This document shows positions 2,379 through 23,172 of a DNA stretch of 64,000 bases, piece by piece. The number at the start of each line of letters is the position of its first letter. Within the stretch, counting starts at the first letter, position 1. Below the pieces are notes generated by a model. It was not told the origin of the DNA and ran no database searches. It was given only the letters and a program-made list of their open reading frames with translations. Source of the DNA: a virus (taxonomy: Duplodnaviria > Heunggongvirae > Uroviricota > Caudoviricetes); the IMG/VR virus record IMGVR_UViG_2541047873_000001, one strand, 5' to 3'. Both the position numbers and the translations under genes were made by a program.

Positions 2379-2705
2379 ATGTTTGCAGATTATGAAAATC
2401 TGGCTGTAGCAGTCATAACATCCCTGCTGAGTGGAACCGGCGTATTCCTTCTCGGAGTTAGAGACGGGCGCATTTCTGCGTCACTGCTCAACCTCGCGAG
2501 TGAATTGTTTACTGCAGTAACTGCCGGGCTTGCGGGGTTTTGGGTGGCTGATAGCTATGAATGGCCGGAAGGCATCATTTACTGCGTTGTTCTGATTGCC
2601 AGTAACAACGGAAGTGAAATTTTACAGGGCTTGAAGTCCAGAGCTAGTAACGTCTTGAATCTCTTAAGCGTAATAGCGAGTGGGGGAAAAGGTGGAGAGA
2701 AGTAA
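2379..2705 (+). CDS. Small membrane protein with three predicted TM segments; holin candidate (P1 LydA-like by size and position)
   Basis: 108 aa with three hydrophobic segments; GGAGGGG RBS; first gene of a block that ends in DarA/DdrB-like genes, as I recall for the P1 dar operon. Confidence 0.5.
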   Translation: MFADYENLAVAVITSLLSGTGVFLLGVRDGRISASLLNLASELFTAVTAGLAGFWVADSYEWPEGIIYCVVLIASNNGSEILQGLKSRASNVLNLLSVIASGGKGGEK

Positions 2706-3151
2706 TGGGTGACTTTGGAAATTATTTCATTTTTATCATGGCATTTGTTGCCGTTATTGACCGTTTCTTATTTCGTCGCAAGAGTGTTGATATTTTGAGC
2801 ATTGGCGAAGCTGTAGTGAAAGAGTCTGCTATAGCGTTTCCCGTGTCGCTTCGCGTTAAGCGAAGCTGGGTAAGCAATGCACAAATCGAATATTGGTTGC
2901 AGGACTTGAAAAATCCATCTGTGGTTATTTCGGGGAAAACAAGACCAGTTGACGCATCAAAACGCGGTGAGAGAGAAGAATATTTGCTCATCGACACGAA
3001 ATATCTTGAGCCAGCGAAGTGGGATCTAAAGGTCACATTGACTAACGGTAATTGCCGCCTGAATCCGCTTTATCGCATTTTCCCTATCAATGACTGCATA
3101 GAACGTCAGTTTATGATTGAAAAGTGTGAAGGAGACTGGAATGTCAAATAA
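2705..3151 (+). CDS. N-terminally membrane-anchored protein (P1 LydB-like by size and position)
   Basis: 148 aa; ATG overlaps the upstream stop (translational coupling); N-terminal hydrophobic helix. Confidence 0.4.
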   Translation: MGDFGNYFIFIMAFVAVIDRFLFRRKSVDILSIGEAVVKESAIAFPVSLRVKRSWVSNAQIEYWLQDLKNPSVVISGKTRPVDASKRGEREEYLLIDTKYLEPAKWDLKVTLTNGNCRLNPLYRIFPINDCIERQFMIEKCEGDWNVK

Positions 3152-3758
3152 ATCTAATTATGTTCTTCTTAATTATGATGAGTTAAACGAAAAGGGGCTG
3201 GCAAAACTCGTCAAAGAAATCGGTAAAGGAGGCTACAAGATAGCGAGGGTGATCCCCGCCAGTAATGGCAGGAAGAAAGACGGGATCATGACGCGCACGT
3301 TTACCCTTATCGGAATCGATGAGCAGACGATGGACGTTCAGGTTAATGATACTGGTGATATTTCTGGTGTAAAACTGAACGGAAAAATTGTTCCTTTCAA
3401 GCCAGTTAAAACGCTGATGGCTTTAGGGCAATCACTGGCTGCTTTATTTAATAAAGGCGCATCATCATTTCAGAAATCATTGGCGCGTAAGTTAGCTCGT
3501 GCGGCGAAAGATATTGATGATGGGAATAAGAAAATAAAAGGCGTTAAGTCCAATGCGCAGAAACTAGCAGAGGCAAAGGAATCTCGCGATGCGATCCGCG
3601 AGGATATTGAAAGGGCCAAAGAAAAATTAAATCAGGTGCAAGGTAATTCAGACCGCGCAACAAGAGAAACTGAAATCATTAGAACCGAGATGGCGCAGGA
3701 ACTGGCGAAAACTCGCGTATTGAAAGAAGAAATAGCGCGCCTGGAGGAAGATGCATGA
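3141..3758 (+). CDS. Coiled-coil protein, Hdf-like (homolog of DarA fragment)
   Basis: Start ATG at 3141 with an AGGAG RBS (the ORF-track start at 3117 is less likely); charged coiled-coil C-terminus resembles the central part of the next ORF. Confidence 0.4.
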   Translation: MSNKSNYVLLNYDELNEKGLAKLVKEIGKGGYKIARVIPASNGRKKDGIMTRTFTLIGIDEQTMDVQVNDTGDISGVKLNGKIVPFKPVKTLMALGQSLAALFNKGASSFQKSLARKLARAAKDIDDGNKKIKGVKSNAQKLAEAKESRDAIREDIERAKEKLNQVQGNSDRATRETEIIRTEMAQELAKTRVLKEEIARLEEDA

Positions 3759-5680
3759 TAAAGAAACCTATTCGAATAAATATCCAGTCCACTTTTGCAG
3801 ATACGCTCACTGGATATACGCCTAATCGTTGGGTGGCGGAAGATATCACCGAGGATGATTTACTTATCGAGCCTGCGACGCTGGAAGATATCGAGCTGGC
3901 CTATATGGGCAACGAAATTTTGGTAACTACCAATGAGGCAATGTTCGAAGCTTTAACCACAACAAAATTGCGGTTAGCGCAAACAATGCGAGCATTTGTC
4001 CGGGCGCTTAATCGCGGCCTGAATGGCACTGACATTGCTGCGGGTACGGATGAGGCAGGTGAATATGAAGACGGACGTAATAGTATCGGTGGGGCAATCA
4101 TTGGGCGCGTGCGCCGGGTTGCTAATATCCCTGTTGTAACAGCACAAATACCTCTAACCGATGGACAAACGACAAGCATAATTTTCCATTCTCCAACCGC
4201 AGACGGCACAAGAATTAAAGGGGATGACGAGCTGGTTGCGTTTCAGTTTCTTCTTAACAAAAGAAACGTTACGCATGTTGTTGCGCCAATCGGTGGGCGT
4301 GATGTATCTCTGAGCCAGGTGTGTCAGGCGCTTTCTAACCTCATTGAGCGTAACAGTGCAAAATTCAAAAAAGCAAAGGAGCGCCAGGACAAAATGAAGG
4401 CTGATATTGAGGGGTATCTCAATGAAGCCGACAAGCTGGCAGAAGAACGTTCTGTGCTGATTGAGCAGGTTGAAGACGCACAGCGGGGGCTGGCAGAGAA
4501 ACGCTCAACACTCAATGATATGCAGAATAAATTAGACGCACAAAAAGCCCTTAACGCGGAATTGCAGGCTAAGCGCGATAATTTATTGTCAGCTAAGAGC
4601 CAAGGAACTAAAGAGCGTGCCTTCAATGATCAACTGCGACACATAAAACATAATCTTGCTACAGAAGGCCAAACAACGCTGGATAATGGTGCTGTAGTTA
4701 AGTATGTCACGTCAGGCAGTGATAGCTTTGTCACGATTGAGGCACCAGAAGGCAATTTCAGTATTGATGTCAGTGCTGTTAAAGGTGGGAGTTCAGCGGA
4801 CGCTGCAACCAAATTACTTAAAGCCTATCGTGAACATAATGCTGATCAATACAAAGTGGATGTGTTGCCGGGCCAGCCTGAGCCAACTGATCAGCCGCAG
4901 CCTGAACAGGAGCCACAACCAGCATCACATCCTGATCCCCTGGAGGTTGGTAAATATCGCTATGCGCTACAATCTCGCCCGGCGGGTGTTGGTGCGGTTC
5001 CTGAAGGAAATAAAGCTGTACTTGACCGTCCTGATCAGGCTGATCCGTATTACGAATATGCTCGTCACGGAATCATTACGTATGACCGCAAACTGACAGA
5101 CGAAGAAGTCAGTCAGTACGAATTACGCTATCTGCCTGATGACGATGAACTGAGAGGGATGGCGAACGAGCTGGTTGCGTCCAGCATGGTAAAACATATT
5201 GATGGCTATGTAGATCTGTTTGGAAGTGACCTGAAAACATTCAAGGCGCAAGTTAAAATTCTTTTCCGCAAAGCGTTCCCGAACGTGGCATATCCACTTG
5301 GTGATGGGGAGAACCTTTTCATTATGGACGTGTATAACGCCCTTCAAAATCATTCAAGCGAAGTAAAAACAGATCCTGTAGTTGAGCCAGAATCGCAACC
5401 TGCACCAGCACCAGAACAGGAGCCGGAGCCAGAAGAAGCGGGTGAATCAGCAAGCGAAGCTGACCAGGAAGCAGATAAAGCGCTTGAGTACCTGAAATCC
5501 GTTCCGGAGCAGTTCACATCCCGCGATCTGACGGTCATAAGTGCTGAACTTGATCATGTGCAGGAAGCTGCAAACGCTCTTATCAGTGCTGGTCGATATG
5601 ACGAGAACGAAGCAACTGTAGGTGCAGCCGTTGACTACCTGATCAATATTCTGGCTGAAATTCAGCAGGGAGGTGCTTAA
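3755..5680 (+). CDS. darA: DarA-like internal head / antirestriction protein
   Basis: 641 aa, close to the ~639 aa I recall for P1 DarA; coiled-coil centre and PE/PQ-rich linkers; sits in a lydAB-hdf-darA-ddrA-ddrB-like order. Assignment is positional plus size, not motif-based. Confidence 0.5.
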   Translation: MIKKPIRINIQSTFADTLTGYTPNRWVAEDITEDDLLIEPATLEDIELAYMGNEILVTTNEAMFEALTTTKLRLAQTMRAFVRALNRGLNGTDIAAGTDEAGEYEDGRNSIGGAIIGRVRRVANIPVVTAQIPLTDGQTTSIIFHSPTADGTRIKGDDELVAFQFLLNKRNVTHVVAPIGGRDVSLSQVCQALSNLIERNSAKFKKAKERQDKMKADIEGYLNEADKLAEERSVLIEQVEDAQRGLAEKRSTLNDMQNKLDAQKALNAELQAKRDNLLSAKSQGTKERAFNDQLRHIKHNLATEGQTTLDNGAVVKYVTSGSDSFVTIEAPEGNFSIDVSAVKGGSSADAATKLLKAYREHNADQYKVDVLPGQPEPTDQPQPEQEPQPASHPDPLEVGKYRYALQSRPAGVGAVPEGNKAVLDRPDQADPYYEYARHGIITYDRKLTDEEVSQYELRYLPDDDELRGMANELVASSMVKHIDGYVDLFGSDLKTFKAQVKILFRKAFPNVAYPLGDGENLFIMDVYNALQNHSSEVKTDPVVEPESQPAPAPEQEPEPEEAGESASEADQEADKALEYLKSVPEQFTSRDLTVISAELDHVQEAANALISAGRYDENEATVGAAVDYLINILAEIQQGGA

Positions 5681-6048
5681 TGGCTATCTCTGTTTTAGAA
5701 CGCCTGAAATTAGGTAAAGAGCTATCAGATCTAATGCAGGCGCAGAAAACCGCGCCAGTATTGCAACGCGTCTCAATTGGTAAGCAGATTGTTGATGTGA
5801 TGCTTAAACTGGGGCTTGGGGCTGCGGCCCAATCAGTATCGGATCCGCAGGCGCAGCCAGATACTGTTGCAGGTGACATTCCTAAGATAGTGACAGACTT
5901 CCTTGGAGGTGCATTCACAAAGTCCACGCAAATGGAATTTATTGATGCGCTACGTGGGATCTCAAACTATGTAGGCGAGTTCCTTACGTTGGAACAGGCT
6001 AAAGAGCAGACCATAAGCTGGGTGAAAGCCAACGGTTATGCAGGGTAA
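5680..6048 (+). CDS. DdrA-like small protein
   Basis: 122 aa; start overlaps the darA-like stop; position matches ddrA in the dar operon. Confidence 0.4.
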   Translation: MAISVLERLKLGKELSDLMQAQKTAPVLQRVSIGKQIVDVMLKLGLGAAAQSVSDPQAQPDTVAGDIPKIVTDFLGGAFTKSTQMEFIDALRGISNYVGEFLTLEQAKEQTISWVKANGYAG

Positions 6049-6141
6049 TCAAAGGGGCTGAAATGCCCCTTTCACTTTCCTGTAAGTCCATAAATCACAC
6101 ACTTTTTACACTTCCTGCTTTCTATGTAAGGGGAGTGTATT

Positions 6142-9100
6142 TTGAACAAGTCAGTTACTTCCGCGCTATCCGAAGCAGCAGACATTAACAGTGTTATTGC
6201 GCTGGTTTCTTCATTAGAGAGGCGAGAAACACGCCAGGGGCGCAGTAGTTACGTAGTCACCAGTAAAGGGGCAGAGGTAAAGACGGCTTTTAAGGTCGTT
6301 GATGCCAGCAGTCTGATCATTTCGAACAACCTTGACGGTACGATTAATCCGGCCTTCCCGGAAGAACTCCAGCCACGTGACCGTACACGGCTATCCAGCA
6401 AACTCCAGGTTAACCGTATTGCCTCCAATTTACGCCCGGCACAATTAACGGATTCCGGCATGAGCAGCCACGGAGCGCCGATAGTTGGTCCGGACAACGT
6501 TGTTGAATCCGGCAACGGAAGGAGCATGGGTATCTGGCGTGCCTATGAGCAAGGGCAGGCGGATGAATATCGCCAGTACCTGATCGATCATGCAAAAGAG
6601 TTTGGTCTGAATCCTGACGACATTTCACAAATGTCTATGCCCGTATTGGTGCGCGAAAGACTCACTGATGTTGATCGTGCGCAGTTCGCCCGCGATTCAA
6701 ACATCAGCGATCTGCAAGAGATGGCTGCAAGTGAAAAAGCGTATGCGGATGCGCAATTTCTCACTGAGAGCGTCATGGCGCTATTTAATCCTTCAGATGA
6801 TGGGAATCTACTGGCGCGGTCCAATGATGCGTTTATTCGTGCGTTTTTGCGCGAAATAGGTGATACGGCGACGGCAGGTTTGCTTACAGCCGATGGGCGT
6901 CCAACGAAACAACTTATCGACCGCATCCAGAATGCAATTTTTGCCAAAGCGTACAAGGATGAAAGGCTTGTTCGGTTGGTGGCGGAAGAGCCAGATCCGG
7001 AAATGCGTAACATCCTTACCGCATTAAATACGGCAGCCAGCGATTTTGCGCAAATGCAGTCGCTTTCAGGTGATGTTCACCATGACACGGTAACCGGACT
7101 GGTAGACGGTATAGAGCAATTGAATGGTCTGGATAAACAGGCTATTGCCGCGCTACAGGAAGCAATTAACCTTGTTCGTGAAGCAAAAGATAACGGTCAG
7201 GCAGTAGAAGAGGTGATCGCACAGCGTGGATTGTTTGGAGATAGCACTCCGGAAGCAGAAGCGCTTGCTCTGTTTATTGTTGCCAACAACCGAAGCGCTA
7301 AGCGAATGGGGGCAGCTTTCAAGAAACTGGCGCAAAAAATTAACGATGAACTTATTCACCAGCAACAAGCGTTAGGCGATATGTTCGGCGGCGGAGATGT
7401 CGATCTGCGTAGCATTTTATCTGCCGTTTCTGATGAAATTGAGGCTGAGTATGGCGAAGGTAAAGGGCTTAATTTCGCCATGTTCGAATCGGTTTCGGGA
7501 GATGTCGAACCATACATTTCAAAGCTAATTGCTGATGCGACCAGCGTGGAGGACTTGATCCGAATCGTGAAGGCGTCAGAAAAAATTAAGGAGTCCGCAA
7601 AAAAAATAAAGCGCAATGTATTTTTGGAACTTGGTTTTTATATTCGCAATGTCACCGTTAATGAGATTAAGGCGTGGGCTAAACGTTATGGATACAGCAA
7701 CGCTGTGTTAACAACGATGTTATTGTCTTATCAACGCAGCAATTTTTATGCTAACGCACTGCGTGACGCGATTGAAAAAGGAGATGAAGCTCCTTCACTC
7801 GCAGATGAAAGAAATATTGATTGTGACATTGAAACGTTTTGCAATATGTCAGAAGAAGGCGTGCCCGCTGAACAATTTATACGTGTTTTACATAATGCAG
7901 CAAAACATATTCCTGATGACTTTAGCATTGATGAATTGCGCAATGGTTGTCTTGTTTGGTTAGGTAACTATTTAAAATCTCCAGCGTCTATTGCAGAGAA
8001 AACAGCTTTAAGATTTAGAAAGGAAATGAATAAAGCTGGAAGCGCAGAAGAGATGGTGCGCATAATCCAAAATACTTTGAAGTTATTCAAAAAGAGCTTG
8101 CATAATATCAACGATATTATGGCGGCTGGTAGGAAAATAACAGCCAGCGTCGGAGTTAGCTCCGAACTAACGGCAGAGGAGATCGCTGATGCGTATATTG
8201 AGACACTTGTCAGGCTTAAGGAGATAGTGGAATTAGCAGAGCATTCCTCATATTACGGAATCAAGGAGCGCGTTGACTTTACTATAGAACAAATCAATAA
8301 AGTTAGGTCAAATAAGGAAAAACTCACTGACTACCTTGCTGAGGTTTTGCACCAGAATGATCATGGGATTGGATATGATCTGAAAAAAATGCTTGTTTTT
8401 AATCTGGACATACCGGAAGACTTGCAAGCAGAATTATATGAAATAGCTTCATTAACACGTGGACAAAAAGCCTATCCTAATGCGCTTGAAAATGTAGTAC
8501 ATAAAAAAGTCAGAGCCGCATTTGACATGATTCTTGAATCGTCAAATGTGTCACATGACCAGTCTAAGGAATGGAGTCGTGGGATTGCTATTTCTGATGA
8601 AGCAGAGCAGTTAAGTGGTCACGATAATGAAACTTTCTCCCGTAAAGCATACAGTATTCGCGAGACAATTGAAAAAGCCTATATTATTTCAGGAGGGACT
8701 TTATCTACATTAAAAAATATTAACCACAAGAACAATGTTCGTGCTTTTGCAAGTCGAAATGGGAATATAACAATTGATGCTAATAGTGATCATGAGCGTG
8801 TATTATGGCATGAAATAGGTCACCATATAGAACATTCAAATCCCCATCTATTGGAGAGGGCCAAAGCCTTCATTAAATCAAAAACTAACGGTAAAGTTTC
8901 TTATCATAATATTGGTAGCCGTGGCAGTGCTGAGTATTTGGTGCGAACCGACCTAAGTCATGGATATATGTCTAAAATTTATATGGAAAATACGGTAAGT
9001 TCTGTCAGCGGCAGATTTATATCAAAGCCACCTGCATTAAGCAATTGCAGGGCGACTGAGATTTTTTCTATGGCCTTGCAGATGTATGCCGATCCTGAGC

Positions 9101-9183
9101 AGGCGACTAACTCTGTATTAAACAATGACGGCGTGCTGGAATTTTTCTTGGGATGTATGAAGGAGTTGCAAAATGAAGTATAG
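6142..9183 (+). CDS. Large DdrB-like protein
   Basis: 1013-aa ORF after a short hairpin (6051-6076); size and position fit P1 DdrB; no catalytic motif recognised. Confidence 0.45.
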   Translation: MNKSVTSALSEAADINSVIALVSSLERRETRQGRSSYVVTSKGAEVKTAFKVVDASSLIISNNLDGTINPAFPEELQPRDRTRLSSKLQVNRIASNLRPAQLTDSGMSSHGAPIVGPDNVVESGNGRSMGIWRAYEQGQADEYRQYLIDHAKEFGLNPDDISQMSMPVLVRERLTDVDRAQFARDSNISDLQEMAASEKAYADAQFLTESVMALFNPSDDGNLLARSNDAFIRAFLREIGDTATAGLLTADGRPTKQLIDRIQNAIFAKAYKDERLVRLVAEEPDPEMRNILTALNTAASDFAQMQSLSGDVHHDTVTGLVDGIEQLNGLDKQAIAALQEAINLVREAKDNGQAVEEVIAQRGLFGDSTPEAEALALFIVANNRSAKRMGAAFKKLAQKINDELIHQQQALGDMFGGGDVDLRSILSAVSDEIEAEYGEGKGLNFAMFESVSGDVEPYISKLIADATSVEDLIRIVKASEKIKESAKKIKRNVFLELGFYIRNVTVNEIKAWAKRYGYSNAVLTTMLLSYQRSNFYANALRDAIEKGDEAPSLADERNIDCDIETFCNMSEEGVPAEQFIRVLHNAAKHIPDDFSIDELRNGCLVWLGNYLKSPASIAEKTALRFRKEMNKAGSAEEMVRIIQNTLKLFKKSLHNINDIMAAGRKITASVGVSSELTAEEIADAYIETLVRLKEIVELAEHSSYYGIKERVDFTIEQINKVRSNKEKLTDYLAEVLHQNDHGIGYDLKKMLVFNLDIPEDLQAELYEIASLTRGQKAYPNALENVVHKKVRAAFDMILESSNVSHDQSKEWSRGIAISDEAEQLSGHDNETFSRKAYSIRETIEKAYIISGGTLSTLKNINHKNNVRAFASRNGNITIDANSDHERVLWHEIGHHIEHSNPHLLERAKAFIKSKTNGKVSYHNIGSRGSAEYLVRTDLSHGYMSKIYMENTVSSVSGRFISKPPALSNCRATEIFSMALQMYADPEQATNSVLNNDGVLEFFLGCMKELQNEV

Positions 9184-9466
9184 CATTGTGAGTCCCGCTG
9201 GGATTAGAGGGATTGTTGAATGCTCTGATGACGGCACATTGCGTATATTTGAAGGCGATATTTCGGAAGAAAATATTGCGCAAGATTTACGCTTTATCAA
9301 CACAAATTCCGCAATGGGGATCGTGAATACCATTCATGCCGATGGGGTGTTTGTTCTGCGGAGCCTGGAAACTGTTGGCTGGGAGGTTGAGTGGCCAGAG
9401 GTGGAAGGAGATCCTGACGACGAAGACGATACTGGCGAATCATATCAAGACATTGATGTGAATTGA
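9173..9466 (+). CDS. Hypothetical acidic protein
   Basis: 97 aa; AAGGAG RBS; overlaps the upstream stop; terminator follows. Confidence 0.4.
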   Translation: MKYSIVSPAGIRGIVECSDDGTLRIFEGDISEENIAQDLRFINTNSAMGIVNTIHADGVFVLRSLETVGWEVEWPEVEGDPDDEDDTGESYQDIDVN

Positions 9467-9479
9467 TATGATTGATAAT

Positions 9480-9502
9480 CCCGCCGTCAGGCGGGTTTTT
9501 TT
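9480..9502. terminator. Rho-independent terminator between convergent genes
   Basis: cccgccgtcaggcggg hairpin plus a T7 run. Confidence 0.65.
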
Positions 9503-9764
9503 AGCGTGGTGTAAGAATAAATTCAGGATGCTCTCCAGCAAGCAATAACAGGTACTCAAATTCACCAGCCATAAGGCGTCTCGGTTTATTTCTATCTTCT
9601 TTGAATTGCCAAGCCCGGAGTTGATACCCCATTTTGTGGGCTAACTCCGTTTGCGTTAGCCCCATTCGCTGGCGGATTTCAATTATGGTTTCCGGGGTGT
9701 TTGGTGGGAGTTGTTTCACAATATGCCCTTTGCCAATGCTGTGATTCGCAACGAAGTATATCAT
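9501..9764 (-). CDS. XRE-family HTH regulator (Hxr-like)
   Basis: 87 aa with MGLTQTELAHKMG helix-turn-helix signature. Confidence 0.55.
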   Translation of the reverse strand: MIYFVANHSIGKGHIVKQLPPNTPETIIEIRQRMGLTQTELAHKMGYQLRAWQFKEDRNKPRRLMAGEFEYLLLLAGEHPEFILTPR

Positions 9765-9776
9765 CGTTGAATCGAT

Positions 9777-10079
9777 TCACAGAGCTGCGCCGAACAGACC
9801 GCAGCATGGCATCCCTTCATCACAGTACCTGGCCCATTCTTTTTGGCATTCTTCTGTTTGCGCGTATTGGCTTAACGCGTCATCCAGCATATCCCAGGCC
9901 TTATAGGAATCCTCTGCAACGCTAAACAAAGTCCTGCCTTCCCGGCTTAGAATTTGCAGATTGTAAATGTTTTCATTGCTCAGACATGCGTGGCTGATAT
10001 GCATGTAAACCGACCATGCAGGAACTCGATTTTTGATAGCAAGTTGGTGTAATTTGGAGTTAATTAAAGAGCTTTTCAT
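9777..10079 (-). CDS. Hypothetical protein
   Basis: ATG at 10079 (MKSSLINSKL); the ORF-track start further upstream is less likely. Confidence 0.3.
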   Translation of the reverse strand: MKSSLINSKLHQLAIKNRVPAWSVYMHISHACLSNENIYNLQILSREGRTLFSVAEDSYKAWDMLDDALSQYAQTEECQKEWARYCDEGMPCCGLFGAAL

Positions 10080-10262
10080 GGAATTTCTCCGCAGCAAAGT
10101 GGTCAACTTTTTTAATCTTAATACGCACAATGTGCATATTCAAGTTTTATTCTTCACTTTGTTACGAGAGGGGCCAGCCAATATTTCTAGTTGAAAAGAT
10201 CCATCATCAAAAATCACATACTGACTATGCTGCCGCAAACTGAAAACATTTCGCGGTGACTC

Positions 10263-11948: not shown

Positions 11949-11961
11949 CCGGAGGGAAATA

Positions 11962-14520: not shown

Positions 14521-14537
14521 CTTACGAGGCCGTAACT

Positions 14538-14762: not shown

Positions 14763-15469
14763 TGGATATCTGCATTCTCGAAAAACTATCAATGACCAGC
14801 ATTGAGATTGCGGAGCTGGTGGGAAGTCAACACTCTGACGTTAAACGTAGTATTGAGCGTATGGTTGCTCGAAGCATTATCCGAAAACCGCCAATGGCTG
14901 TTTTCGAAAAAATCAATAACTTAGGATTGCGTCGTGGCGTTGAGGCTTACGTCTTCGAAGGCGAGCAAGGCAAACGAGACAGCATTATTGTCGTTGCGCA
15001 GCTCTCTCCGGAATTCACCGCCCGGCTGGTGGACCGCTGGCGCGAACTGGAAGAACAAGTACGCCAGCCGTTGACCGAAATAGAGATGATCGCTGCAATG
15101 GCTGCGAATGCAGTTCAGCAGCAAAAGCGGCTTCATGCTGTTGAGTCAAAGGTTAGCCAGGTCGCTGAAACCGTCGAGCAGATCAAGAAAGGCAACATAC
15201 CAGAAGGCTACATTGGCTACCGCCAACTGGCGGCGAAATGCGGCCTGACTGAAGCCAAATGCCGTAACCTGGTCAACGCTTACCGGATCCCCACAGATAC
15301 GCATGAGTTTTTGACGCCAGAGGGGGTATTGTCGCGTCGTACTATTGTGGCCTTATCTCCCTTCATGAATGCCTTTACCCTGATGATGTCGGAGGCTGAA
15401 CACCGAGGAAAACGCTGGTATCACCCAAGGATGGGGCAATTCCAGGTAATCGGTTGGGGAGGCGAGTGA
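14762..15469 (+). CDS. ant: Antirepressor, Rha/Ant family
   Basis: N-terminal TSIEIAELVGSQHSDVKRSIER (Rha-type) and conserved central/C-terminal blocks shared with 52584..53525. Confidence 0.7.
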   Translation: MDICILEKLSMTSIEIAELVGSQHSDVKRSIERMVARSIIRKPPMAVFEKINNLGLRRGVEAYVFEGEQGKRDSIIVVAQLSPEFTARLVDRWRELEEQVRQPLTEIEMIAAMAANAVQQQKRLHAVESKVSQVAETVEQIKKGNIPEGYIGYRQLAAKCGLTEAKCRNLVNAYRIPTDTHEFLTPEGVLSRRTIVALSPFMNAFTLMMSEAEHRGKRWYHPRMGQFQVIGWGGE

Positions 15470-15666: not shown

Positions 15667-15674
15667 AGTGTGAT

Positions 15675-15699
15675 GCCCCGGCTTGGCCGGGGCTTTTTT
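15675..15699 (+). terminator. Rho-independent terminator
   Basis: gccccggcttggccggggc hairpin plus a T6 run, between convergent genes. Confidence 0.65.
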
Positions 15700-16183
15700 A
15701 TGCCTCATTAGTTGAGGTTGCTGCGTCTCCGACTGGTAACAGAGCTGTATTGCGTGGTTCGCCAGCAGGCCAGCGATAGCCAGACACTCTTGATGTTGGG
15801 AATGCGCGAATATTAACAGCATCCCCCTGGTTCCCACCCAAGACAAGCAGATCGCCATTGGCGCGGTGTCCGACAACAAAGCCTACATGCCCACCGCCTG
15901 CGCGAGTAAATACAACGATACATCCGTATGCCGGTGTATCTAATTTCTCGCCCCAATCCAGATAGGATTTTGCCGACTCAAATCTTGTTGAGCGGATACC
16001 TACACGTTCCAGCATTGCACCAACAAATGCAGCGCACCACGGCGTTTCGTCGTCTTTAATTCCGCTGCGCTTAATATCCCGCCAGAACTGAACGATCTCA
16101 GGATTGTGTTTCGCTCCTTTTATTTCGGTGACTCCAATATTTTTACGGGCCTCAATAAGCCAGCGAGGTTCAATGTTTGCCAT
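15698..16183 (-). CDS. Cys/His cell-wall hydrolase candidate (NlpC/P60 or CHAP-like, TIGR02594-type)
   Basis: 161 aa with PWCAAFVGAMLE and GHVGFVVG motifs typical of papain-like peptidoglycan hydrolases. Confidence 0.45.
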   Translation of the reverse strand: MANIEPRWLIEARKNIGVTEIKGAKHNPEIVQFWRDIKRSGIKDDETPWCAAFVGAMLERVGIRSTRFESAKSYLDWGEKLDTPAYGCIVVFTRAGGGHVGFVVGHRANGDLLVLGGNQGDAVNIRAFPTSRVSGYRWPAGEPRNTALLPVGDAATSTNEA

Positions 16184-16320
16184 ATATTTCTCCCGCTCAT
16201 GGGTTAATAAGTAGGCAAACTATGGTGAGTATGTGATTTTGACGGTAGTGTCGTTCATCCCTGAAAATAACATTCTCCATACCCTCTCAAACCGAACCGC
16301 TTAAGGCGGATTTAACGGTT

Positions 16321-19300
16321 TTGAGGGGGCTTCCTTTGGACAAAATAATTGATTCAATTAGCCAGGCCACCAGCATTGGGGCGCTGATTGAAATTGTTAG
16401 TCGGTTGCATAAACCGCGAGCTGTAGTGACCTTTGGCGTTAAGAAAGTCGATGGCGTCAGTATTCAGAAAACACGCCGGACAGCAAACAACGCCGCAGTA
16501 GATCTTCTTAATTCCCTTCCGCCCGGCTTCGATGGAGCGAAATTAACTGACGAACAGCGTCAGATTCTTGCCGGGTATACCGGTGAAGGCGGCCTGACAG
16601 ATGGTGAGGGCAGCCAATACGAATACTATACGCCACAGTTTATGGCAGAAGGTATATGGGATCTCTTCGGCGACTACGGTATTGATAGCGGTCACGTACT
16701 GGAACCGTCAGCAGGCACAGGTATTTTCCAGGAGACAAAACGGCAGGGCATGATAATGACCAGCGCCGAACTGTCTCCGATCTCCGGTCGAATAAACCAG
16801 CTTTTGCACCCGGAAGATGATGTGAATATCGGGGCGTTTGAGGCGCTGGCGGCGAAAGATGCAATGTATGACCACGCAGTTGGTAACGTACCGTTTGGCG
16901 AAGGGCGTTCCGGCGTCGCCGGGCTTGATCCGGCATATGCAAACGAGAAGAACGTTGGCAATTATTTTGTGCTGCGCACGATCGACAAGGTTAAGCCTGG
17001 TGGGCTAATTGTATTGGTGGTGCCGAATGGCATGACCGATGGTACGAAATACAAAAAATTGCGCGATAAAGTCAGCCGTAAAGCGGAATTTTTGGGCGCG
17101 CATCGTATGCCTTCTGGTACGTTCAGCGAATCCGGTACAGATACCGTGGTGGACGTATGGGTATTGCGTAAACACCCGGAAACCTTCCTGGAGATGATCC
17201 CCGACACGGATGATGCAACGCTCAAATCGGCAAACGTCCTTTGGGATACCTTCCTCAAAGGGAAATGGTTTACAACCGAAGGGAAGCGATTTGTTTACGG
17301 CGACATGGAACGCACCAGCTTCCGCAATACCCTGGTGGTGAAAAAGGACGGTCGTGTATCCAATGAGTCGATGAAAACCGCGTTATCACGCCGCTTTGAA
17401 AGCCGTATTAATTGGGATTTGCTCGGAGTAACTACCCAGGCATGGCAGGGCGCAAAAGTAGGGGATAAGCGTCTTGTAGGCGGTATCTGGCATGAGTTTG
17501 ATGGCCTGAAATGGGTTAAGGACACGACAACCAAATCCTCCGCGCTTGATGTAAGTCGATATGGTGTTTCGACGTTTGGCGATCTGCAGATCGCGTTCCA
17601 GTCAACAAACGGGATTCTGGCTTTGTCATGGGACCAGATATCGGCGATCGCGTCCGACTATCCATCGGTTGTCAGTGATGAAGTGGCAGCAATGATTCGC
17701 TTTGCTGGCAAACAGCGAGAAAAAGACAGGGAGCGCGTTATGCGCGGTGCGTTGATAGGGCAGTTGATCAACAAGGCACTTGATTTGCGTAACCTGGGGG
17801 TGAACGTTGATGACAAACTGGCAGATGCATCCCGCCTGGCGGCAGCAGAAGTTGCGAAGTATGGACCACCGCACGCGATTAAGCTGAATGGGCTTGCTGA
17901 AGCTGGCGCTAAAAACTGGATGACGTTCACTGGCAATGTGAAACAGGATGGTTCCACTTCTGACCTTCTGGCAGGGCGACTTGATGTAACGGATGGTGCT
18001 GCCGGTATTGACTTTACACGTCCGGAACAAGTGATAGCACATCTTTTCAGTGATGTAGCCCTTAATCCTATAACGCTGGGCGACTTTCGTGAGGCGTTTG
18101 CTGGTGAACTGCCAGAGGACGACGACGCGGCCCTTGAATACCTGGCGAAATTTGATGATATCGCTATTGATGGGTATGGCTGCCTGCTGCCGATGGACCG
18201 CGCCACCAGCGGCGATATTGTAACCAAAACAGCATTGCTGGTGGGCTGGCGTGATGCATCAACAGGTGAGCAGAAAGCGAACTTTGAGCGTCAGTTGGCG
18301 AAAATCGAAGAGAAACGCATTTTCACGCCACTAAATAAAGTCACCGTTAATCTGAACGCCCGCTGGCTGGATCGCCGCTTGATAAAAGAGTTCCTGGCAG
18401 AGCAGGGCTATGACGAGTTTAAGTACACTGAACCTGATCTGAAGGTCGTCGATGGCATTCTGGTATCTCCGGACGATTACGAAGGTAAGGACGGGGTATT
18501 TACCGGCTATCAGCTACGAACCGTAAACGGCAAAAACGGGAATGAGTTCAAGAAGGCCAACAATAAAGACGGCTTCCTGAACCAGTTAGAAAACTACCTG
18601 AACGGTGTTAAACCGCGTGGGCAGAACGCTAACGAGTACCTGGATAAAATTGCTCAACTGGAAGTTAGCTTTAACGACTGGTTACGCACCCACCCGCAGG
18701 CGGATCAGATAGCCCGTGACTATAACGACGCATTCAATGGCTTCATTCCGTTCACGCACTCTAACGCACCGCTTGGCCTGGAAGGGATTAGTGGAAAGCG
18801 CATTCCTCTGACTTATCAGAATGAAGAAGTTCGTCGCTTATCAGAAGATGGGCGCGGCATCATGGGATTTGGCACCGGGCTGGGTAAAACCACGACCGCG
18901 CTTGCGCTTGAGGCGTATAACTTCGAAACAGGTCGTACTAAACGCACGTGTATTGTTGTTCCGAAGGCGGTTTATCAGAACTGGTATCACGAGGCACAGA
19001 GCTTCTACAGTGCTGATGCCTTCGCCAATATGATGTTTATCGGTCTGGATGAAGTTCGTGATGACAGCGGAAATATTCTGACCGCTCCGGTGCTTGATGA
19101 AAATGGCGAACCCCGCCTCGACAGTAACGGGCAGCCTCTTACCAGAAATGTTGTGAAAGAGTCCGCCAGCGCCGTTATCGTTCAGCGCATGAACATGATC
19201 CCGTCGTCAAATTGGCGAACGGTCATCATGACAAAAGAACAATTCGCGTCTATCCCGCTACGAGAAAAAACCATCGAGGAGAACTCACAGCAAGCTGTCT

Positions 19301-22300
19301 TTAATGCTGTGGAAATGGGGCGTCTTGACCTGGCGTCTGGTAAACACCGTGATGCGCAGAAGAAGAACAAGATTAAGGATCAGGCCGCGAATACCGGTAC
19401 AACGAAGAAGCAGAATATCCCGTACTTTGAGGATATGAACTTCGATAGCGTGATAGCCGACGAGGGGCATAACTACCGCAACTCCTTTAATGCCGGGCGT
19501 GAAGCGGGACAACTGGCATATTTGCCTAACCCGGCAGTATCCAAGATGGCCCGCGACATGGCTGTAAAAGCTGCGTACATGATGAAACGCAACAACGGGC
19601 GTGGTGTAGTCATGCTGACGGCAACACCGCTGGTGAACAGTCCGATTGATGCCTTCAACATGCTGTCTACTGTCATTCCGCAGGAAGAGTGGATGCGCAT
19701 GGGCATCATTACGCCTGATGATTTCGTTCGTGTGTTTGGTAAAACAGCCACAGTTCAGGTCCAGAAAATTTCCGGGGAAGTGGAAGAGAAGCAGGGGCTG
19801 GTTGGCTTCCAGAACCTTGATGGCCTGCGTGGCATTTTCCATCGCTGGACTACTCTGAAGACTGCTGCGGACGTCGGGGCGACGGTTAAAATCCCTGATA
19901 TTGTCGAGAATACCTTGCAGATCCCGATGACAGGGGAGCAGGAGGCTGCTTATGAAGAGCTTCGTAAGCGTGCACAGGAGTTAAGTAGTAAAGATGCGCT
20001 GACGGTTGATGAAAACGGGCATATCACAAACGAAAAACCGGATGATTTCATCTTCTCCATCATCCGCGACATGGATAAGGTTGCTATAGATCCGGATCTG
20101 TATGCCAGTGCGATTACATTCCAGTTCCCCGTTGAGCTTGCAGACAAGGTAAAAGCTATTGCTGATGCCCTGCCAAAAGTAGCTGGCGGTAAAGTGGCAG
20201 ATGATGCAGACGAGGCCGAAGAAGACGGCGCTGGTGGGCTGGTTAGTACGCGCACCAGTAAGGTAGTGAAGACCACCTTTAGTGAACATCCGGCGCATGT
20301 TGAAATACGTGCCAGCATTGAACTGGAAGCTGAAATACTGAAGGCCATTGCTGCCGCCGGGATTGATATGCAGCAGGTATCACACCCAATCCCGCCGAAG
20401 TATGCCGCGCTGATCGAAAACCTTCGTGAAGGTCTGAAGAACGGTAAACAAATTGTCTTCATTGATGAAAAAGCCCAGCACCAGAAGCTGCGCCGTATTA
20501 TCGCCAGTGCACTGCAAATGCCGGAGCAGGAGATAGGCATTATCAATGCGACGACCGTTAGCCAGGCTGGCGGCATCAAGCTGAAGAAGGTGAATAAGCC
20601 GACTGAACCTACTCCGAATAAAAACGGTGAATACAAAGAAGGGGCATGGGAAACCTACTACAGCAAACTTGCCCAATATGAGGATTATCTCTCAGCTAAA
20701 AATGATGCTGGCCTTGAGGGTATGGAAGGCATTGCCGCCGACTATAACGAAGGGCGCACGCGCATAATTATCTGTAACAAGAAGGCTGAAGTAGGTATTA
20801 ACCTGCATATCGGGACAACCGATATCCACCACCTGACACTACCCTGGACACCAGCCAGTATCGACCAACGAAATGGGCGCGGTGCGCGCGTAGGTTCACC
20901 GCAAGAGAAGGTCAATGTTCACTACTATTGTGGCAAAGGCACATTCGACGACTTCCGTCTGGATACGCTGAAACGTAAGAAAGACTGGATCAAGATGGTG
21001 ATGACCTCCGACATGTCAGAGATCGCCAATGGTGATGCGGATGATGCTGATGAACGCGCCATTATGCTGGCGGCAAACCCGGAAGAACGCCGCGCAATCA
21101 TGGCTCGCCAGGCGCAAGAGCGTGAAGAACGTCTGAAACTGAAAGCACAGCGCGAGGCCAACAATGCTCTCGATATCTACCTGAAAGCGGCAAACGCCGC
21201 TGGAAAAGATATCGGCATGATGGAGACAGAACTGAAAAGCGCGATGGAACAGATAGAGTATTACCAGCGAAATCTTGACGACCTGATAAAAGCGGGTACG
21301 AACAGGAATGGGCAAAAATTCGCGCTTGAGCAGTTGAGTAGCTACAGAAAACGTGCGCGGGTGCTGCGGTTTGCGATCACCAGGGCAAAAGACGCGGATA
21401 CCATAATGAAACGCTCTCGTGGTGATGTGGAGCGCGCTATTAAGTCTGGTGTGCTGGATATCAGTATCGATGTTATTCAGAACCCACAGGAATATATGCG
21501 CACTGACAAGAATATCCTGTTGCATAAAGGTAGTTATTACCGTGCAGTCATTGATGATCGCGAAACAACAGCGATTGTCCGGGTGGAAAAAATTGACGGT
21601 GAAAAAGCACAATACCTCTGCCGTATCGCCTGGCTGGATAGAGCAAGTCGTTACGCTCGATCACCGGGGTCAATCGTTACATTGCCGTTTGACTCTGTGA
21701 TTGAAGCGGTAACTTTTGAAGAGGGGGTAGCTGAATCGCGCGCAACGGCTGCGCGTGGTGTTCAGTGCCACCAGCTATCAACAATACTTACTCGCGATCA
21801 GTTCTATGATGCTATTCGCAATGGGGTAATGAATGTTATTGCTGGTAAACCTGGTAATGCATGGGGCGGTGGGTCAGCTATTAAATACTGGGCATATCGT
21901 ACAGATGATGGTCAGATCGCGCTGTCATCGGCCTATGATGGCGTGATAGGCCAAAAAATCGGGCGAGCATCGGATATAGCACCTGAACGATGGATATATC
22001 CAGATGGCAACGATGAGGCGCTGAAGCGTGAAGTGGCAAAAATACAAGCCAGTGATAACCCGCTGAATATCGTGGACGGCGAGGGATTCCTCCAGGCATT
22101 GTATGGGTATGATTACATCCAGGGAATGCAGGCATGGGGCGCACAGGCAACGATGGATGATGTTGTCCAGGAGTTCGAAAACTGGATGGCTGGGCGTGGT
22201 CTGTCAGGTCGTTCGCTTAATAAAGTCACTTCTGAAGATATTCTTAGCTTGTTCCGCAAACCGTCCGGAGAAGGTCTGGAATCATTCTGGAGGACCGTGC

Positions 22301-23172
22301 TGGCATACCGTTTATTCAAGGGCAGAATGAAAGCCTTTAGCAATATCGATGATATTGAACGGATGTTTAATCAGGTCAAGATCGCCAAAATTAAGACGAA
22401 GATCGAAAAAACACGTTCTGCGCTGGTGGCCTGGCGCGATGCATTGTTTGAGCAATATAAATCACTCAGTGATGCAGATGGATGGGCGGCATTGGAACAG
22501 TTGGCGAATAATGGGGTAGATGGAGCGAAACTCGCCATAGTCCAGGCTGATAACCCCCTGGAATCACCGGCAGCACAGTGGATTAAGGTGGGGGCTGTCA
22601 TCAATGCATTTGATGAAAAACACATTAGTAAGGACGATTTTGCTGATGCTGTTTCTGTTAATCGCCTGGTAGAAATGGCTACCCGCCGCGCCCGTGAGTT
22701 GAAAGACGGTGACTATGTGAATGAGTTGCCGGATGCGCTCAAATCAGCAACGTGGCAAGACTATGTATCGCTGAAAAACGGCGGGGCAACCGAATCAGAG
22801 ATCGCGGAAAGGCTTGAACAGGCTGAAAGCAAAAGAGAAGAGCAGGCGGCAGTGGCTGAAGCCAGAGCTGATGAAGCGGCGAATGATGACTATATCATTG
22901 TGGTTAATGATAAGCCGATTCGCGCTAAGGCGCGTGTTCGCGGGCGCTGGTGGAGTGTCAGCGAGGACGTCGGTGCGGTTTATCTCATTGCCGACCAACC
23001 TGGTTCCTCGACAATACGGAACGCCAAAGACGCGATTAAGAAGATTGGCGGGCGTTTCTGGAATTTTGAAGCAAACCCGGTTGCTGATGTGAACTTTGAC
23101 CGTCCTGCATGGATGGTATCTACGCGTTACTCGGTAGATGAACTGCGTAAAATAATCGCCGATGCGGCCTAA
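16321..23172 (+). CDS. darB: DarB-type antirestriction protein (N6-adenine methyltransferase plus DExH helicase)
   Basis: 2283 aa; SAM motif EPSAGTGIF and NPPF-like GNVPFG; Walker A GFGTGLGKTTTA and DEGHNYRN box. Start is uncertain (TTG at 16321 or 16336). Confidence 0.8.
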   Translation: MRGLPLDKIIDSISQATSIGALIEIVSRLHKPRAVVTFGVKKVDGVSIQKTRRTANNAAVDLLNSLPPGFDGAKLTDEQRQILAGYTGEGGLTDGEGSQYEYYTPQFMAEGIWDLFGDYGIDSGHVLEPSAGTGIFQETKRQGMIMTSAELSPISGRINQLLHPEDDVNIGAFEALAAKDAMYDHAVGNVPFGEGRSGVAGLDPAYANEKNVGNYFVLRTIDKVKPGGLIVLVVPNGMTDGTKYKKLRDKVSRKAEFLGAHRMPSGTFSESGTDTVVDVWVLRKHPETFLEMIPDTDDATLKSANVLWDTFLKGKWFTTEGKRFVYGDMERTSFRNTLVVKKDGRVSNESMKTALSRRFESRINWDLLGVTTQAWQGAKVGDKRLVGGIWHEFDGLKWVKDTTTKSSALDVSRYGVSTFGDLQIAFQSTNGILALSWDQISAIASDYPSVVSDEVAAMIRFAGKQREKDRERVMRGALIGQLINKALDLRNLGVNVDDKLADASRLAAAEVAKYGPPHAIKLNGLAEAGAKNWMTFTGNVKQDGSTSDLLAGRLDVTDGAAGIDFTRPEQVIAHLFSDVALNPITLGDFREAFAGELPEDDDAALEYLAKFDDIAIDGYGCLLPMDRATSGDIVTKTALLVGWRDASTGEQKANFERQLAKIEEKRIFTPLNKVTVNLNARWLDRRLIKEFLAEQGYDEFKYTEPDLKVVDGILVSPDDYEGKDGVFTGYQLRTVNGKNGNEFKKANNKDGFLNQLENYLNGVKPRGQNANEYLDKIAQLEVSFNDWLRTHPQADQIARDYNDAFNGFIPFTHSNAPLGLEGISGKRIPLTYQNEEVRRLSEDGRGIMGFGTGLGKTTTALALEAYNFETGRTKRTCIVVPKAVYQNWYHEAQSFYSADAFANMMFIGLDEVRDDSGNILTAPVLDENGEPRLDSNGQPLTRNVVKESASAVIVQRMNMIPSSNWRTVIMTKEQFASIPLREKTIEENSQQAVFNAVEMGRLDLASGKHRDAQKKNKIKDQAANTGTTKKQNIPYFEDMNFDSVIADEGHNYRNSFNAGREAGQLAYLPNPAVSKMARDMAVKAAYMMKRNNGRGVVMLTATPLVNSPIDAFNMLSTVIPQEEWMRMGIITPDDFVRVFGKTATVQVQKISGEVEEKQGLVGFQNLDGLRGIFHRWTTLKTAADVGATVKIPDIVENTLQIPMTGEQEAAYEELRKRAQELSSKDALTVDENGHITNEKPDDFIFSIIRDMDKVAIDPDLYASAITFQFPVELADKVKAIADALPKVAGGKVADDADEAEEDGAGGLVSTRTSKVVKTTFSEHPAHVEIRASIELEAEILKAIAAAGIDMQQVSHPIPPKYAALIENLREGLKNGKQIVFIDEKAQHQKLRRIIASALQMPEQEIGIINATTVSQAGGIKLKKVNKPTEPTPNKNGEYKEGAWETYYSKLAQYEDYLSAKNDAGLEGMEGIAADYNEGRTRIIICNKKAEVGINLHIGTTDIHHLTLPWTPASIDQRNGRGARVGSPQEKVNVHYYCGKGTFDDFRLDTLKRKKDWIKMVMTSDMSEIANGDADDADERAIMLAANPEERRAIMARQAQEREERLKLKAQREANNALDIYLKAANAAGKDIGMMETELKSAMEQIEYYQRNLDDLIKAGTNRNGQKFALEQLSSYRKRARVLRFAITRAKDADTIMKRSRGDVERAIKSGVLDISIDVIQNPQEYMRTDKNILLHKGSYYRAVIDDRETTAIVRVEKIDGEKAQYLCRIAWLDRASRYARSPGSIVTLPFDSVIEAVTFEEGVAESRATAARGVQCHQLSTILTRDQFYDAIRNGVMNVIAGKPGNAWGGGSAIKYWAYRTDDGQIALSSAYDGVIGQKIGRASDIAPERWIYPDGNDEALKREVAKIQASDNPLNIVDGEGFLQALYGYDYIQGMQAWGAQATMDDVVQEFENWMAGRGLSGRSLNKVTSEDILSLFRKPSGEGLESFWRTVLAYRLFKGRMKAFSNIDDIERMFNQVKIAKIKTKIEKTRSALVAWRDALFEQYKSLSDADGWAALEQLANNGVDGAKLAIVQADNPLESPAAQWIKVGAVINAFDEKHISKDDFADAVSVNRLVEMATRRARELKDGDYVNELPDALKSATWQDYVSLKNGGATESEIAERLEQAESKREEQAAVAEARADEAANDDYIIVVNDKPIRAKARVRGRWWSVSEDVGAVYLIADQPGSSTIRNAKDAIKKIGGRFWNFEANPVADVNFDRPAWMVSTRYSVDELRKIIADAA

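Follow-up and report, generated by a model that had tools for sequence, protein, structure and literature searches.

Background

In phage P1, darB is separated from the darA operon by prt, pro, lydE, lydD, lyz, ssb, isaA, IS1, isaB and hxr. The functions of the P1 Dar proteins have been described (PMC9024508, PMC12810830); DarA and Hdf have a role in determining head size, and the first 30 residues of DarB are its capsid-targeting sequence (PMC9024508). The P1 lysin, Lyz, is a T4-lysozyme-type signal-anchor-release (SAR) glycosidase, recognized by PF00959 at 80 bits. P1 late (Lpa-dependent) promoters, which lie upstream of late operons and are present for R, pmgB/sit, gene 23 and mat, consist of a AAGTGACTT-type -22 box followed, after 4 nt, by TANNNT.

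D6-like elements form the P1-g2 subgroup, which has already been published (PMC7969092). In phage D6 (MF356679 / NC_050154, annotated 2017-18) the order is lydA, lydB, hdf, darA, ddrA, ddrB, prt, pro, repL, icd, a Roi-type antirepressor gene, orf17, a peptidoglycan hydrolase gene on the opposite strand, darB and ulx. The D6-like plasmid pYU39_89 has been described as carrying the peptidoglycan hydrolase gene beside an ImmI-like region and a second c4-icd copy (PMC6799933). No literature was found on experiments with D6 Dar proteins or with the element analysed here.

A D6-like late-gene block

The window, a stretch of 64,000 nucleotides from IMG/VR virus record IMGVR_UViG_2541047873_000001, is very probably a D6-like (P1-g2) phage-plasmid in which positions 2379-23643 form the standard late-gene block, with the Dar, lysis and transcription scheme proposed below (Table 1). 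The region shows 91.7% DNA identity to phage D6 over 87% of its length, with the same gene order (orf30 to orf14), and Lpa, PacA, PacB and C1 of the window are 74 to 92% identical to their D6 counterparts. At least 80% of the region is present in 95 PLSDB plasmids and in 87 records from 86 complete E. coli genomes, the closest of which is 99.3% identical across 100% of the region. An identical block order was found in about 90 complete plasmids, whose hosts are E. coli and Salmonella. The arrangement is already known from the published D6 annotation; the first-pass annotation mentioned neither the match to D6 nor the description of pYU39_89.

Table 1. Features of the late-gene block and the lpa homologue (window coordinates)
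Feature	Position	Strand	Evidence or remark
Candidate box AAATAACAAACTGGATAAGTT before lydA, at P1 LPdar position	2326-2346	+	Same place in D6
lydA, holin	2379-2705	+	41% identity to P1 LydA, E 3.5e-23 (BLASTP); weak PF16083 match
lydB, holin antagonist	2705-3151	+	PF16084 LydB 86.9 bits; 34% identity to P1 LydB, E 1e-28
hdf, DarA_N-domain head protein	ORF 3117-3758, likely 3141-3758	+	DarA_N 65 bits; 40% identity to P1 Hdf, E 2e-29
darA	3755-5680	+	40.6% identity to P1 DarA over 623 aa, E 1e-144
ddrA	5680-6048	+	phrog_1855 DdrA-like, E 1.8e-47; 34% identity to P1 DdrA, E 1e-20
Candidate internal box before ddrB	6092-6112	+	Also in D6; one mismatch in Raoultella relative
ddrB, full length	6142-9183	+	ddrB-ParB 142 bits; 44% identity to P1 DdrB, 1036 aligned positions, E 0
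hxr-like gene, last of dar operon	9173-9466	+	41% identity to P1 Hxr, E 2.5e-14
Terminator-like hairpin and T run, closing dar operon	9480-9495	+	
Small XRE-type HTH gene, weak match	9501-9764	-	HTH_3 E 0.005, below cut-off; phrog_7950 repressor E 4e-6
Candidate box before prt, at P1 LPpro position	10211-10231	+	Also in D6 and Raoultella relative
prt, portal	10263-11948	+	51% identity to P1 Prt, E 0
pro, head-processing protease	11962-12960	+	41% identity to P1 Pro, E 7e-84
repL homologue, lytic replication initiator	13160-14122	+	28% identity to P1 RepL, E 1e-27; D6 orf20 annotation
c4 a1/b1 target element; C4 antisense RNA	14285-14337; 14406-14491	+	Rfam RF03163 55.2 bits; RF01695 69.6 bits
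icd	14538-14762	+	59% identity to P1 Icd
Rha/Roi-type antirepressor	14762-15469	+	PF09669 31 bits; phrog_63 anti-repressor E 1e-45
Strong GC hairpin and T run, between convergent ant unit and lysin	15675-15693	+	
Soluble CHAP/NlpC-P60 peptidoglycan hydrolase, probable endolysin	15698-16183	-	PF05257 CHAP 32.9 bits (cut-off 26); TIGR02594 145.3 bits (cut-off 70.55)
Candidate box before lysin, at P1 LPlyz position	16219-16239	-	Also in D6 and Raoultella relative
Candidate box before darB	16265-16285	+	Also in D6 and Raoultella relative
darB	ORF 16321-23172, likely 16336-23172	+	43% identity to P1 DarB over aa 1-1935, E 0
ulx	23209-23643	+	46% identity to P1 Ulx, E 5e-43; phrog_1629 Ulx-like
lpa homologue, late-promoter activator, outside block	30271-30660	+	81.5% identity to D6 Lpa; 33.6% to P1 Lpa

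The dar genes

The first-pass annotation had assigned a lydA-lydB-hdf-darA-ddrA-ddrB operon and a distant darB from gene size and order, and these assignments hold. All of the ORFs are intact and encode homologues of the P1 proteins (34 to 46% identity, E 1e-20 to 0, including Ulx), and the BLASTP matches are backed by family models (DarA_N/DarA_C, anti_RE_DarA, ddrB-ParB and LydB). Similarity of 3755-5680 and 6142-9183 to P1 DarA and DdrB, on which that annotation had made the module depend, was found at E 1e-144 and E 0.

LydA has a single clear hydrophobic segment (residues 9 to 27). DarA_N is common to the products of the neighbouring genes hdf and darA; DarA also contains DarA_C and matches NCBIfam NF052326 (anti_RE_DarA) at 1155 bits (cut-off 350). 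At its N-terminus DdrB (1013 aa) has a ParB-like domain, and in its C-terminal part a metallopeptidase motif of the HExxH type (HEIGH, residues 890 to 894) that aligns with HELGH of P1, while its middle part is weakly conserved relative to P1. DarB (2278 aa) combines an N6-methylase-like N-terminal part with a SNF2-type helicase (Pfam SNF2-rel_dom, ResIII, Helicase_C and, weakly, N6_Mtase) and shares the motifs EPSAGTG and DEGH with P1 DarB. Simple pattern searches found neither a methylase motif IV of the NPPY type nor a Walker A of the form GxGKT in window DarB or in P1 DarB, and so do not discriminate between them. Identity to P1 falls to 15 to 26% past about residue 1600, and only about five of the first 30 residues are identical (approximately 17%); the partner head proteins have diverged too.

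Comparison with the D6 annotation by alignment, together with the position of the Shine-Dalgarno sequence, makes TTG 16336 the most likely start of darB and ATG 3141, rather than TTG 3117, that of hdf (aligned with D6 orf28). A homologue of P1 iddB, which is antisense to ddrB, was sought and a 60% match obtained at 7112-6717 (minus strand). It was rejected as a by-product rather than a gene, because it contains an in-frame stop and falls where ddrB is most conserved (56 to 84% identity).

In the interval between the two dar loci, the antirepressor gene product has no match to P1 Ant1 and is not P1 Ant1/2. The repL homologue had not been named in the first-pass annotation. PGAP annotates a 54-aa version of the small XRE-type gene in close relatives.

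The lysin

The lysin had been noted from the sequence as a Cys/His papain-like hydrolase, convergent with ant and not of the T4-lysozyme type. Profile searches bear this out: CHAP and TIGR02594 both score above their cut-offs, whereas the protein has no match to PF00959 and BLASTP to P1 Lyz gives E 3. Cys50 and His99 are invariant across 25 homologues, and a structure model (pLDDT 85) places the Cys at the start of a helix (residues 49 to 60) and the His on a strand (residues 99 to 106). Searching the PDB by sequence was uninformative, giving an unrelated protein at E 0.11. When the model was compared with the PDB by Foldseek, every one of the top 28 matches was a wall hydrolase of the NlpC/P60 type (best E 4.6e-5, probability 1.00, TM approximately 0.53). 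No hydrophobic or membrane segment was found in the lysin; as it has no N-terminal membrane segment, its release should depend on holin holes. No spanin genes were recognized near the lysin gene; neither orf17 nor any of the small ORFs between 9.7 and 10.4 kb encodes a membrane segment.

Candidate late promoters

By pattern search, a conserved box, AAATMACA-N7-YANNNT, precedes lydA, ddrB, prt, the lysin gene, darB and mat. It occurs six times in the window against 0.28 expected, an enrichment that is partly circular because the box was derived from five of these six sites; the independent checks are D6 and the Raoultella relative only. In the other 50 kb of D6 it occurs four times against 0.16 expected, in each case just upstream of R, pmgB/sit, gene 23 or mat, and in the Raoultella relative it is kept before darB, the lysin gene, prt and ddrB. 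The box is probably the late promoter of the D6 group, and the Lpa homologue is likely to be its regulator. It is the single addition made here, although it may already be described in Gilcrease and Casjens 2018.

The P1 late-promoter pattern AAGTKACT-N5-TANNNT has three matches in the window, not in excess of chance and none at the expected places, and the P1 C1 operator core has no match in the window even with two mismatches. Judged by these searches, P1 regulatory sites are not conserved in the block.

Proposed scheme

By homology with P1, Hdf and DarA would bind the procapsid interior, after which DdrA, DdrB, Ulx and, last, the 250-kDa methylase/helicase-like DarB would be loaded stepwise. 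On leaving the head with the DNA, the Dar proteins would shield it in cis from type I restriction. For lysis, LydA, restrained by LydB, would permeabilise the inner membrane, and the soluble CHAP/NlpC-P60 cysteine peptidase would then cleave peptidoglycan in place of the signal-anchor-release Lyz of P1. The conserved box stands ahead of each unit, namely lydA-hxr (where ddrB has a further one), prt-pro, the lysin gene and darB-ulx, and would be read by the element's diverged Lpa. With a box per unit, units could be inverted or interrupted relative to P1 and still keep late control.

That the D6 group has its own late box, read by an Lpa only 34% identical to P1 Lpa, with a private copy for each dar, head and lysis unit, and that LydA/LydB serve either lysin type, is a generalization whose chances appear evenly balanced. 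If true, private boxes would explain how inversion, interruption and exchange of the endolysin were tolerated with no loss of late control, and the same holin pair would serve a membrane-tethered lysozyme in P1 and a soluble CHAP peptidase in the D6 group.

For the region itself, the outcome is a confident label, a D6-type Dar, head and lysis block, with little import beyond annotation. D6-like phage-plasmids are common among clinical E. coli and Salmonella. They are predicted to encode the full P1-style set of proteins against type I restriction, and their predicted endolysin is a small soluble CHAP peptidase, not a lysozyme. The conserved late-type box offers a simple handle with which to map late operons in the D6 group.

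Alternative explanations

The dar genes might be kept mainly as head-assembly factors, with antirestriction reduced or altered and DdrB or the C-terminal region of DarB dispensable or retargeted. Truncation of ddrB at 454 aa in D6 (where the metallopeptidase part is missing) and a ddrB of 498 aa in the Raoultella relative are in keeping with this, as are the poor conservation relative to P1 of the C-terminal third of DarB and the middle of DdrB, and the part that P1 DarA and Hdf play in head-size determination (PMC9024508). However, all eight genes are intact in the window, catalytic-type motifs are retained (HExxH in DdrB; EPSAGTG and DEGH in DarB), and window DarB is 98% identical to that of D6 across 2278 aa, which argues for purifying selection. 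This explanation is improbable, and a Dar system predicted to act against restriction is preferred. Slightly less probable again is that another enzyme lyses the cell and that the CHAP/TIGR02594 protein is a moron or a wall hydrolase with an accessory or virion-associated role. The PHROGs family that it matches best is a long profile named "baseplate hub subunit and tail lysozyme", of which it hits the C-terminal domain. TIGR02594 domains have been found in type VI secretion effectors as well (PMC13055248), and the lysin gene lies apart from lydA/lydB, but P1 lyz is likewise unlinked to lydAB. Moreover, the lysin is a stand-alone protein (161 aa, 17.6 kDa) whose gene is preceded by a late-type box of its own, in the way that LPlyz precedes P1 lyz. 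An E. coli homologue (67 to 68% identical) occupies the endolysin slot of a lambdoid prophage, directly after two holin genes and a Q antiterminator gene, and in Pseudomonas phage ZC01 the putative endolysin is a TIGR02594 protein (PMC5418858). No lyz-like sequence or other lysin was found within the whole window, nor is another lysin annotated in the complete genome of the plaque-forming D6 except the tail protein Sit.

The first-pass annotation implied a rearrangement of the P1 genome that is new and specific to this element, and order and orientation are indeed unlike those of P1. Yet the same order is present in D6, whose record dates from 2017, and in the E. coli and Salmonella plasmids; the complete E. 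coli genomes also carry the block, features of it were described for pYU39_89 (PMC6799933), and the pro-repL-lysin-darB core is kept even in the Raoultella plasmid, where the lysin is 81% identical. These comparisons refute a new rearrangement, which retains practically no probability, and the block is best read as the standard one of D6-like elements.

Comparison with P1, D6 and lambdoid systems

Eight homologues of the P1 Dar system are present with the same lengths, within-operon order and domains, but with only 34 to 46% protein identity. The claim that the module is rearranged relative to P1 stands in part. In both P1 and the window the two dar loci are separated by portal, protease and lysin genes, so the portal and protease genes between them are no novelty. 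What does differ is that the prt-pro...lysin block of the window is inverted relative to both dar units (by tblastn strands), that repL and a c4-icd-ant module are inserted between pro and the lysin gene, and that P1 genes are absent: ssb, isaA, IS1 and isaB are missing from the interval (though isaA has a homologue in another part of the window, near 38 kb), as are lydC, lydD and lydE from the block.

Compared with D6, gene order and orientation are the same. The differences are a full-length P1-like ddrB in place of the D6 gene, which is cut short and followed by the unrelated orf24 and orf23, together with an hxr-like gene and the small XRE gene, all as in plasmids NZ_CP117014 and NZ_JBTZPF010000006. 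In addition, of the cin gene and the invertible fibre segment of D6, the window keeps only a cin remnant.

The window lysin resembles P1 Lyz in being convergent with pro, in having its own late-type box and in its presumed role in lysis, but it is a cysteine peptidase of unrelated sequence and fold and has no lydD/lydE downstream. It is also much like the stand-alone TIGR02594/CHAP hydrolases of enterobacterial prophages, which are of about 160 aa, 67 to 75% identical and have the same invariant Cys and His. In lambdoid prophages and phage ZC01 such hydrolases are encoded behind holin genes in a lysis cassette (PMC5418858), whereas the window lysin gene lies 13 kb from its holin genes, back to back with darB.

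Dar, head and lysis genes

Each gene named in the first-pass annotation is an intact ORF just where it had been placed, and the names were right, as shown by family models and by BLASTP comparison with the translated proteins of P1 (NC_005856). Assignment of the dar genes had rested on size and order; it is now backed by domain and motif matches, and the condition set for rejecting it, a lack of similarity of 3755-5680 and 6142-9183 to P1 DarA and DdrB, is decisively contradicted. DarA matched the NCBIfam equivalog anti_RE_DarA at 1155 bits (cut-off 350) as well as DarA_N and DarA_C, Hdf matched DarA_N, LydB PF16084, DdrB ddrB-ParB (142 bits), and DdrA and Ulx their own PHROGs families. DdrB retains HExxH (HEIGH, aligned to HELGH of P1), and DarB shares EPSAGTG and DEGH with P1 DarB. 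The HExxH metallopeptidase of P1 has been proposed to process DdrB (PMC5512222).

Features of the region and its surroundings
Feature	Position in window	Strand	P1 counterpart or context	Identity	E value
LydA			P1 LydA	41%	3.5e-23
LydB			P1 LydB	34%	1e-28
Hdf			P1 Hdf	40%	2e-29
DarA	3755-5680		P1 DarA	40.6% over 623 aa	1e-144
DdrA			P1 DdrA	34%	1e-20
DdrB	6142-9183		P1 DdrB	44%, 1036 aligned positions	0
Hxr-like			P1 Hxr	41%	2.5e-14
Prt			P1 Prt	51%	0
Pro			P1 Pro	41%	7e-84
Icd			P1 Icd	59%	3.6e-23
DarB			P1 DarB	43% over aa 1-1935	0
Ulx			P1 Ulx	46%	5e-43
Candidate late box	2326		upstream of lydA
Candidate late box	6092		upstream of ddrB
Candidate late box	10211		upstream of prt
Candidate late box	16239-16219	-	upstream of lysin
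Candidate late box	16265		upstream of darB
Candidate late box	55125		upstream of mat
Strong terminator-like hairpin	9480-9495		after hxr
Strong terminator-like hairpin	13074-13099		after pro
Strong terminator-like hairpin	15675-15693		after orf17/lysin
a1b1 element	14285-14337		first c4 module
C4 RNA (Rfam)	14406-14491		first c4 module
isrK-like element	52104-52182		before second C4 RNA
Second C4 RNA	52227-52314		76.7 bits
Second icd	52390-52566		after second C4 RNA
Tail-fibre gene	70-1464	+	toward lydA
Fibre assembly gene	1496-1918	+	toward lydA
cin remnant, ~87 bp	2151-2237
Four tRNA genes	27727-28752	+
Lpa homologue	30271-30660		P1 Lpa	33.6%

Conservation with P1 is poor across the 30 N-terminal residues of DarB, and past residue ~1600 identity to P1 is 15-26%, compared with 98% to D6. 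Alignment to D6 and Shine-Dalgarno positions suggest that hdf starts at ATG 3141 and darB at TTG 16336. An IddB-like frame antisense to ddrB (6588-7112, minus strand) has 60% identity to P1 IddB but contains an in-frame stop; as this stretch is where ddrB is best conserved, the frame is probably not a gene.

In P1, Hdf and DarA line the capsid inner surface as 55 pairs (PMC12810830). Both are required for loading of the remaining Dar proteins, DarB enters last via an N-terminal targeting signal, and Dar proteins protect injected DNA against type I systems (PMC9024508). P1-like loading dependent on Hdf and DarA, with DarB last, and protection against type I systems would be expected in this D6-like element.

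Gene order relative to P1

When P1 is oriented with the dar operon as top strand, its order is lydC-lydA-lydB-hdf-darA-ddrA-ddrB-hxr rightward, isaB-IS1-isaA-ssb leftward, lyz-lydD-lydE rightward, pro-prt leftward and darB-ulx rightward. The window reads lydA-lydB-hdf-darA-ddrA-ddrB-hxr-like rightward, xre and two ORFs leftward, prt-pro, repL and c4-icd-ant-orf17 rightward, the CHAP lysin leftward and darB-ulx rightward. The claim that the module is rearranged therefore holds in part: compared with P1, the prt-pro...lysin block lies in the opposite orientation with respect to the dar units, and genes are missing or inserted, but portal, protease and lysin genes separate the dar loci in P1 too. 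In the search against P1, dar genes matched its minus strand and prt/pro its plus strand. Searches with P1 genes gave no match anywhere in the window for ssb, isaB, lydC, lydD, lydE, lxc or lyz, and the isaA homologue is shifted from its P1 place to ~38 kb.

Between pro and the lysin lie a RepL homologue (28% identity, E 1e-27) and a c4-icd-antirepressor module. In a more distantly related Raoultella plasmid (CP196041.1; lysin 81% identical), prt-pro-repL-lysin stands back to back with darB-ulx without c4-icd-ant; the block therefore gained or lost its immunity module more recently. The same plasmid carries an SSB gene (15816-16301) between ddrA and a 498-aa ddrB. In the closest relative, plasmid NZ_JBTZPF010000006.1, the lysin-darB gap holds an extra 498-bp gene for a carboxypeptidase-like regulatory domain protein (16500-16997), absent from the window (equivalent ~16184-16335); the divergent lysin/darB promoter region thus accepts insertions.

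The first c4 module (14285-14537; P1 48240-48475) is ~87% identical to P1 and has the same a site (TTGACAG). Its b recognition sites co-vary relative to P1 at all three places (GTTAGTG in b1 and b2 with CACTAAC in C4 in P1; ACTTACG with CGTAAGT here), which suggests that immI specificity differs. A second, very divergent C4 RNA lies within 52104-52566, and c4-icd duplication is known in D6-like plasmids (PMC6799933).

Of the cin invertase only a remnant was found, with P1 Cin residues 11-34 matching at 2221..2150 (minus strand). From this and the orientation of the fibre and assembly genes, the fibre module seems fixed, whereas it is invertible in P1 and D6. NZ_JBTZPF010000006.1 likewise has no invertase at its fibre module. 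Where the window has its tRNA cluster, D6 is annotated with tRNA-Ser, tRNA-Thr and tRNA-Asn.

A papain-like lysin

The lysin (15698-16183, minus strand; 161 aa) is, as had been proposed, a Cys/His papain-like hydrolase rather than a T4-lysozyme-type enzyme: it exceeds the curated cut-offs for CHAP (32.9 bits, cut-off 26) and TIGR02594 (145 bits, cut-off 70.55), and no similarity to P1 Lyz (PF00959) was found. It has more than 5,500 homologues, and Cys50 and His99 are invariant in 25 diverse ones. The AlphaFold model (pLDDT 85, pTM 0.85) resembles NlpC/P60 wall endopeptidases, which make up all of the top 28 PDB matches (best E 4.6e-5, TM ~0.53).

The protein is most likely the endolysin. In a lambdoid prophage of E. 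coli, a homologue (67-68% identical) occupies the endolysin slot, directly after a Q antiterminator and a pair of holin genes. The complete D6 annotation contains no second lysin besides tail protein Sit, and TIGR02594 is a putative endolysin in Pseudomonas phage ZC01 (PMC5418858). A small doubt about this role arises because the top-scoring PHROGs profile, matched in its C-terminal part, is a "baseplate hub and tail lysozyme" family.

P1 Lyz is reportedly a signal-anchor-release protein, its export behaviour being known from the 2004-2005 work of Xu et al. No hydrophobic segment was found in the window lysin, which, as a predicted soluble enzyme, should therefore depend on LydA holes, unlike P1 Lyz.

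A candidate late promoter

P1-type late boxes and C1 operators were not found at the places corresponding to P1. Comparison of upstream regions instead yielded a shared box, AAATMACA-N7-YANNNT, with six matches in the window (0.28 expected); as five of these six sites defined the pattern, it was tested elsewhere. All five are kept in the D6 locus, and the remaining 50 kb of D6 has four matches (0.16 expected), which immediately precede R, pmgB/sit, gene 23 and mat. Three of these four sites correspond to annotated late promoters in the compared P1 stretch (R, sit operon, mat); P1 presumably also has one before gene 23. In the Raoultella relative, which has five matches (0.91 expected), the box precedes darB, the lysin, prt and ddrB. 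The window Lpa homologue has 81.5% identity to D6 Lpa, far more than to P1 Lpa. From this distribution and the diverged activator, the box is probably the D6-group late promoter. With hairpins closing them, the transcription units each look self-contained, in keeping with a tolerated inversion.

Comparison with D6 and its relatives

By megablast, 2379-23172 is 91.7% identical to Escherichia phage D6 (MF356679/NC_050154) over 87% of the query. D6 homology stops inside ddrB and restarts at the prt late box (7475-10211; D6 8114-9238). In this interval the window carries ddrB at full length, HExxH included, together with the hxr-like gene, two small ORFs and an XRE gene; the ddrB of D6 is cut at 454 aa and accompanied by orf24 (weak DUF4145) and orf23. 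Both ddrB types are common in plasmids, forming classes of 100% and 87% coverage.

The region matched 616 PLSDB plasmids; in 95, mainly E. coli and Salmonella ones, 80% or more of it is found in one place. Among 5,426 complete E. coli genomes, 86 (87 records) have at least 80%, and NZ_JBTZPF010000006.1 is 99.3% identical across 100%.

The candidate late box is the sole new item here, a minor one that the D6 paper may already describe. The lysin swap is already known, D6 being annotated with a "putative peptidoglycan hydrolase", and in D6-like plasmid pYU39_89 both a second c4-icd copy and a peptidoglycan hydrolase next to an ImmI-like region have been described (PMC6799933). Among P1-like phage-plasmids, D6-like elements have been published as subgroup P1-g2 (PMC7969092). 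Gene order and orientation in annotated D6 agree with those of the window: lydA, lydB, hdf, darA, ddrA, ddrB, prt, pro, repL, icd, a Roi-like antirepressor, orf17, the hydrolase on the opposite strand, darB and ulx. The "rearrangement" is thus the standard published D6-type layout and nothing new.
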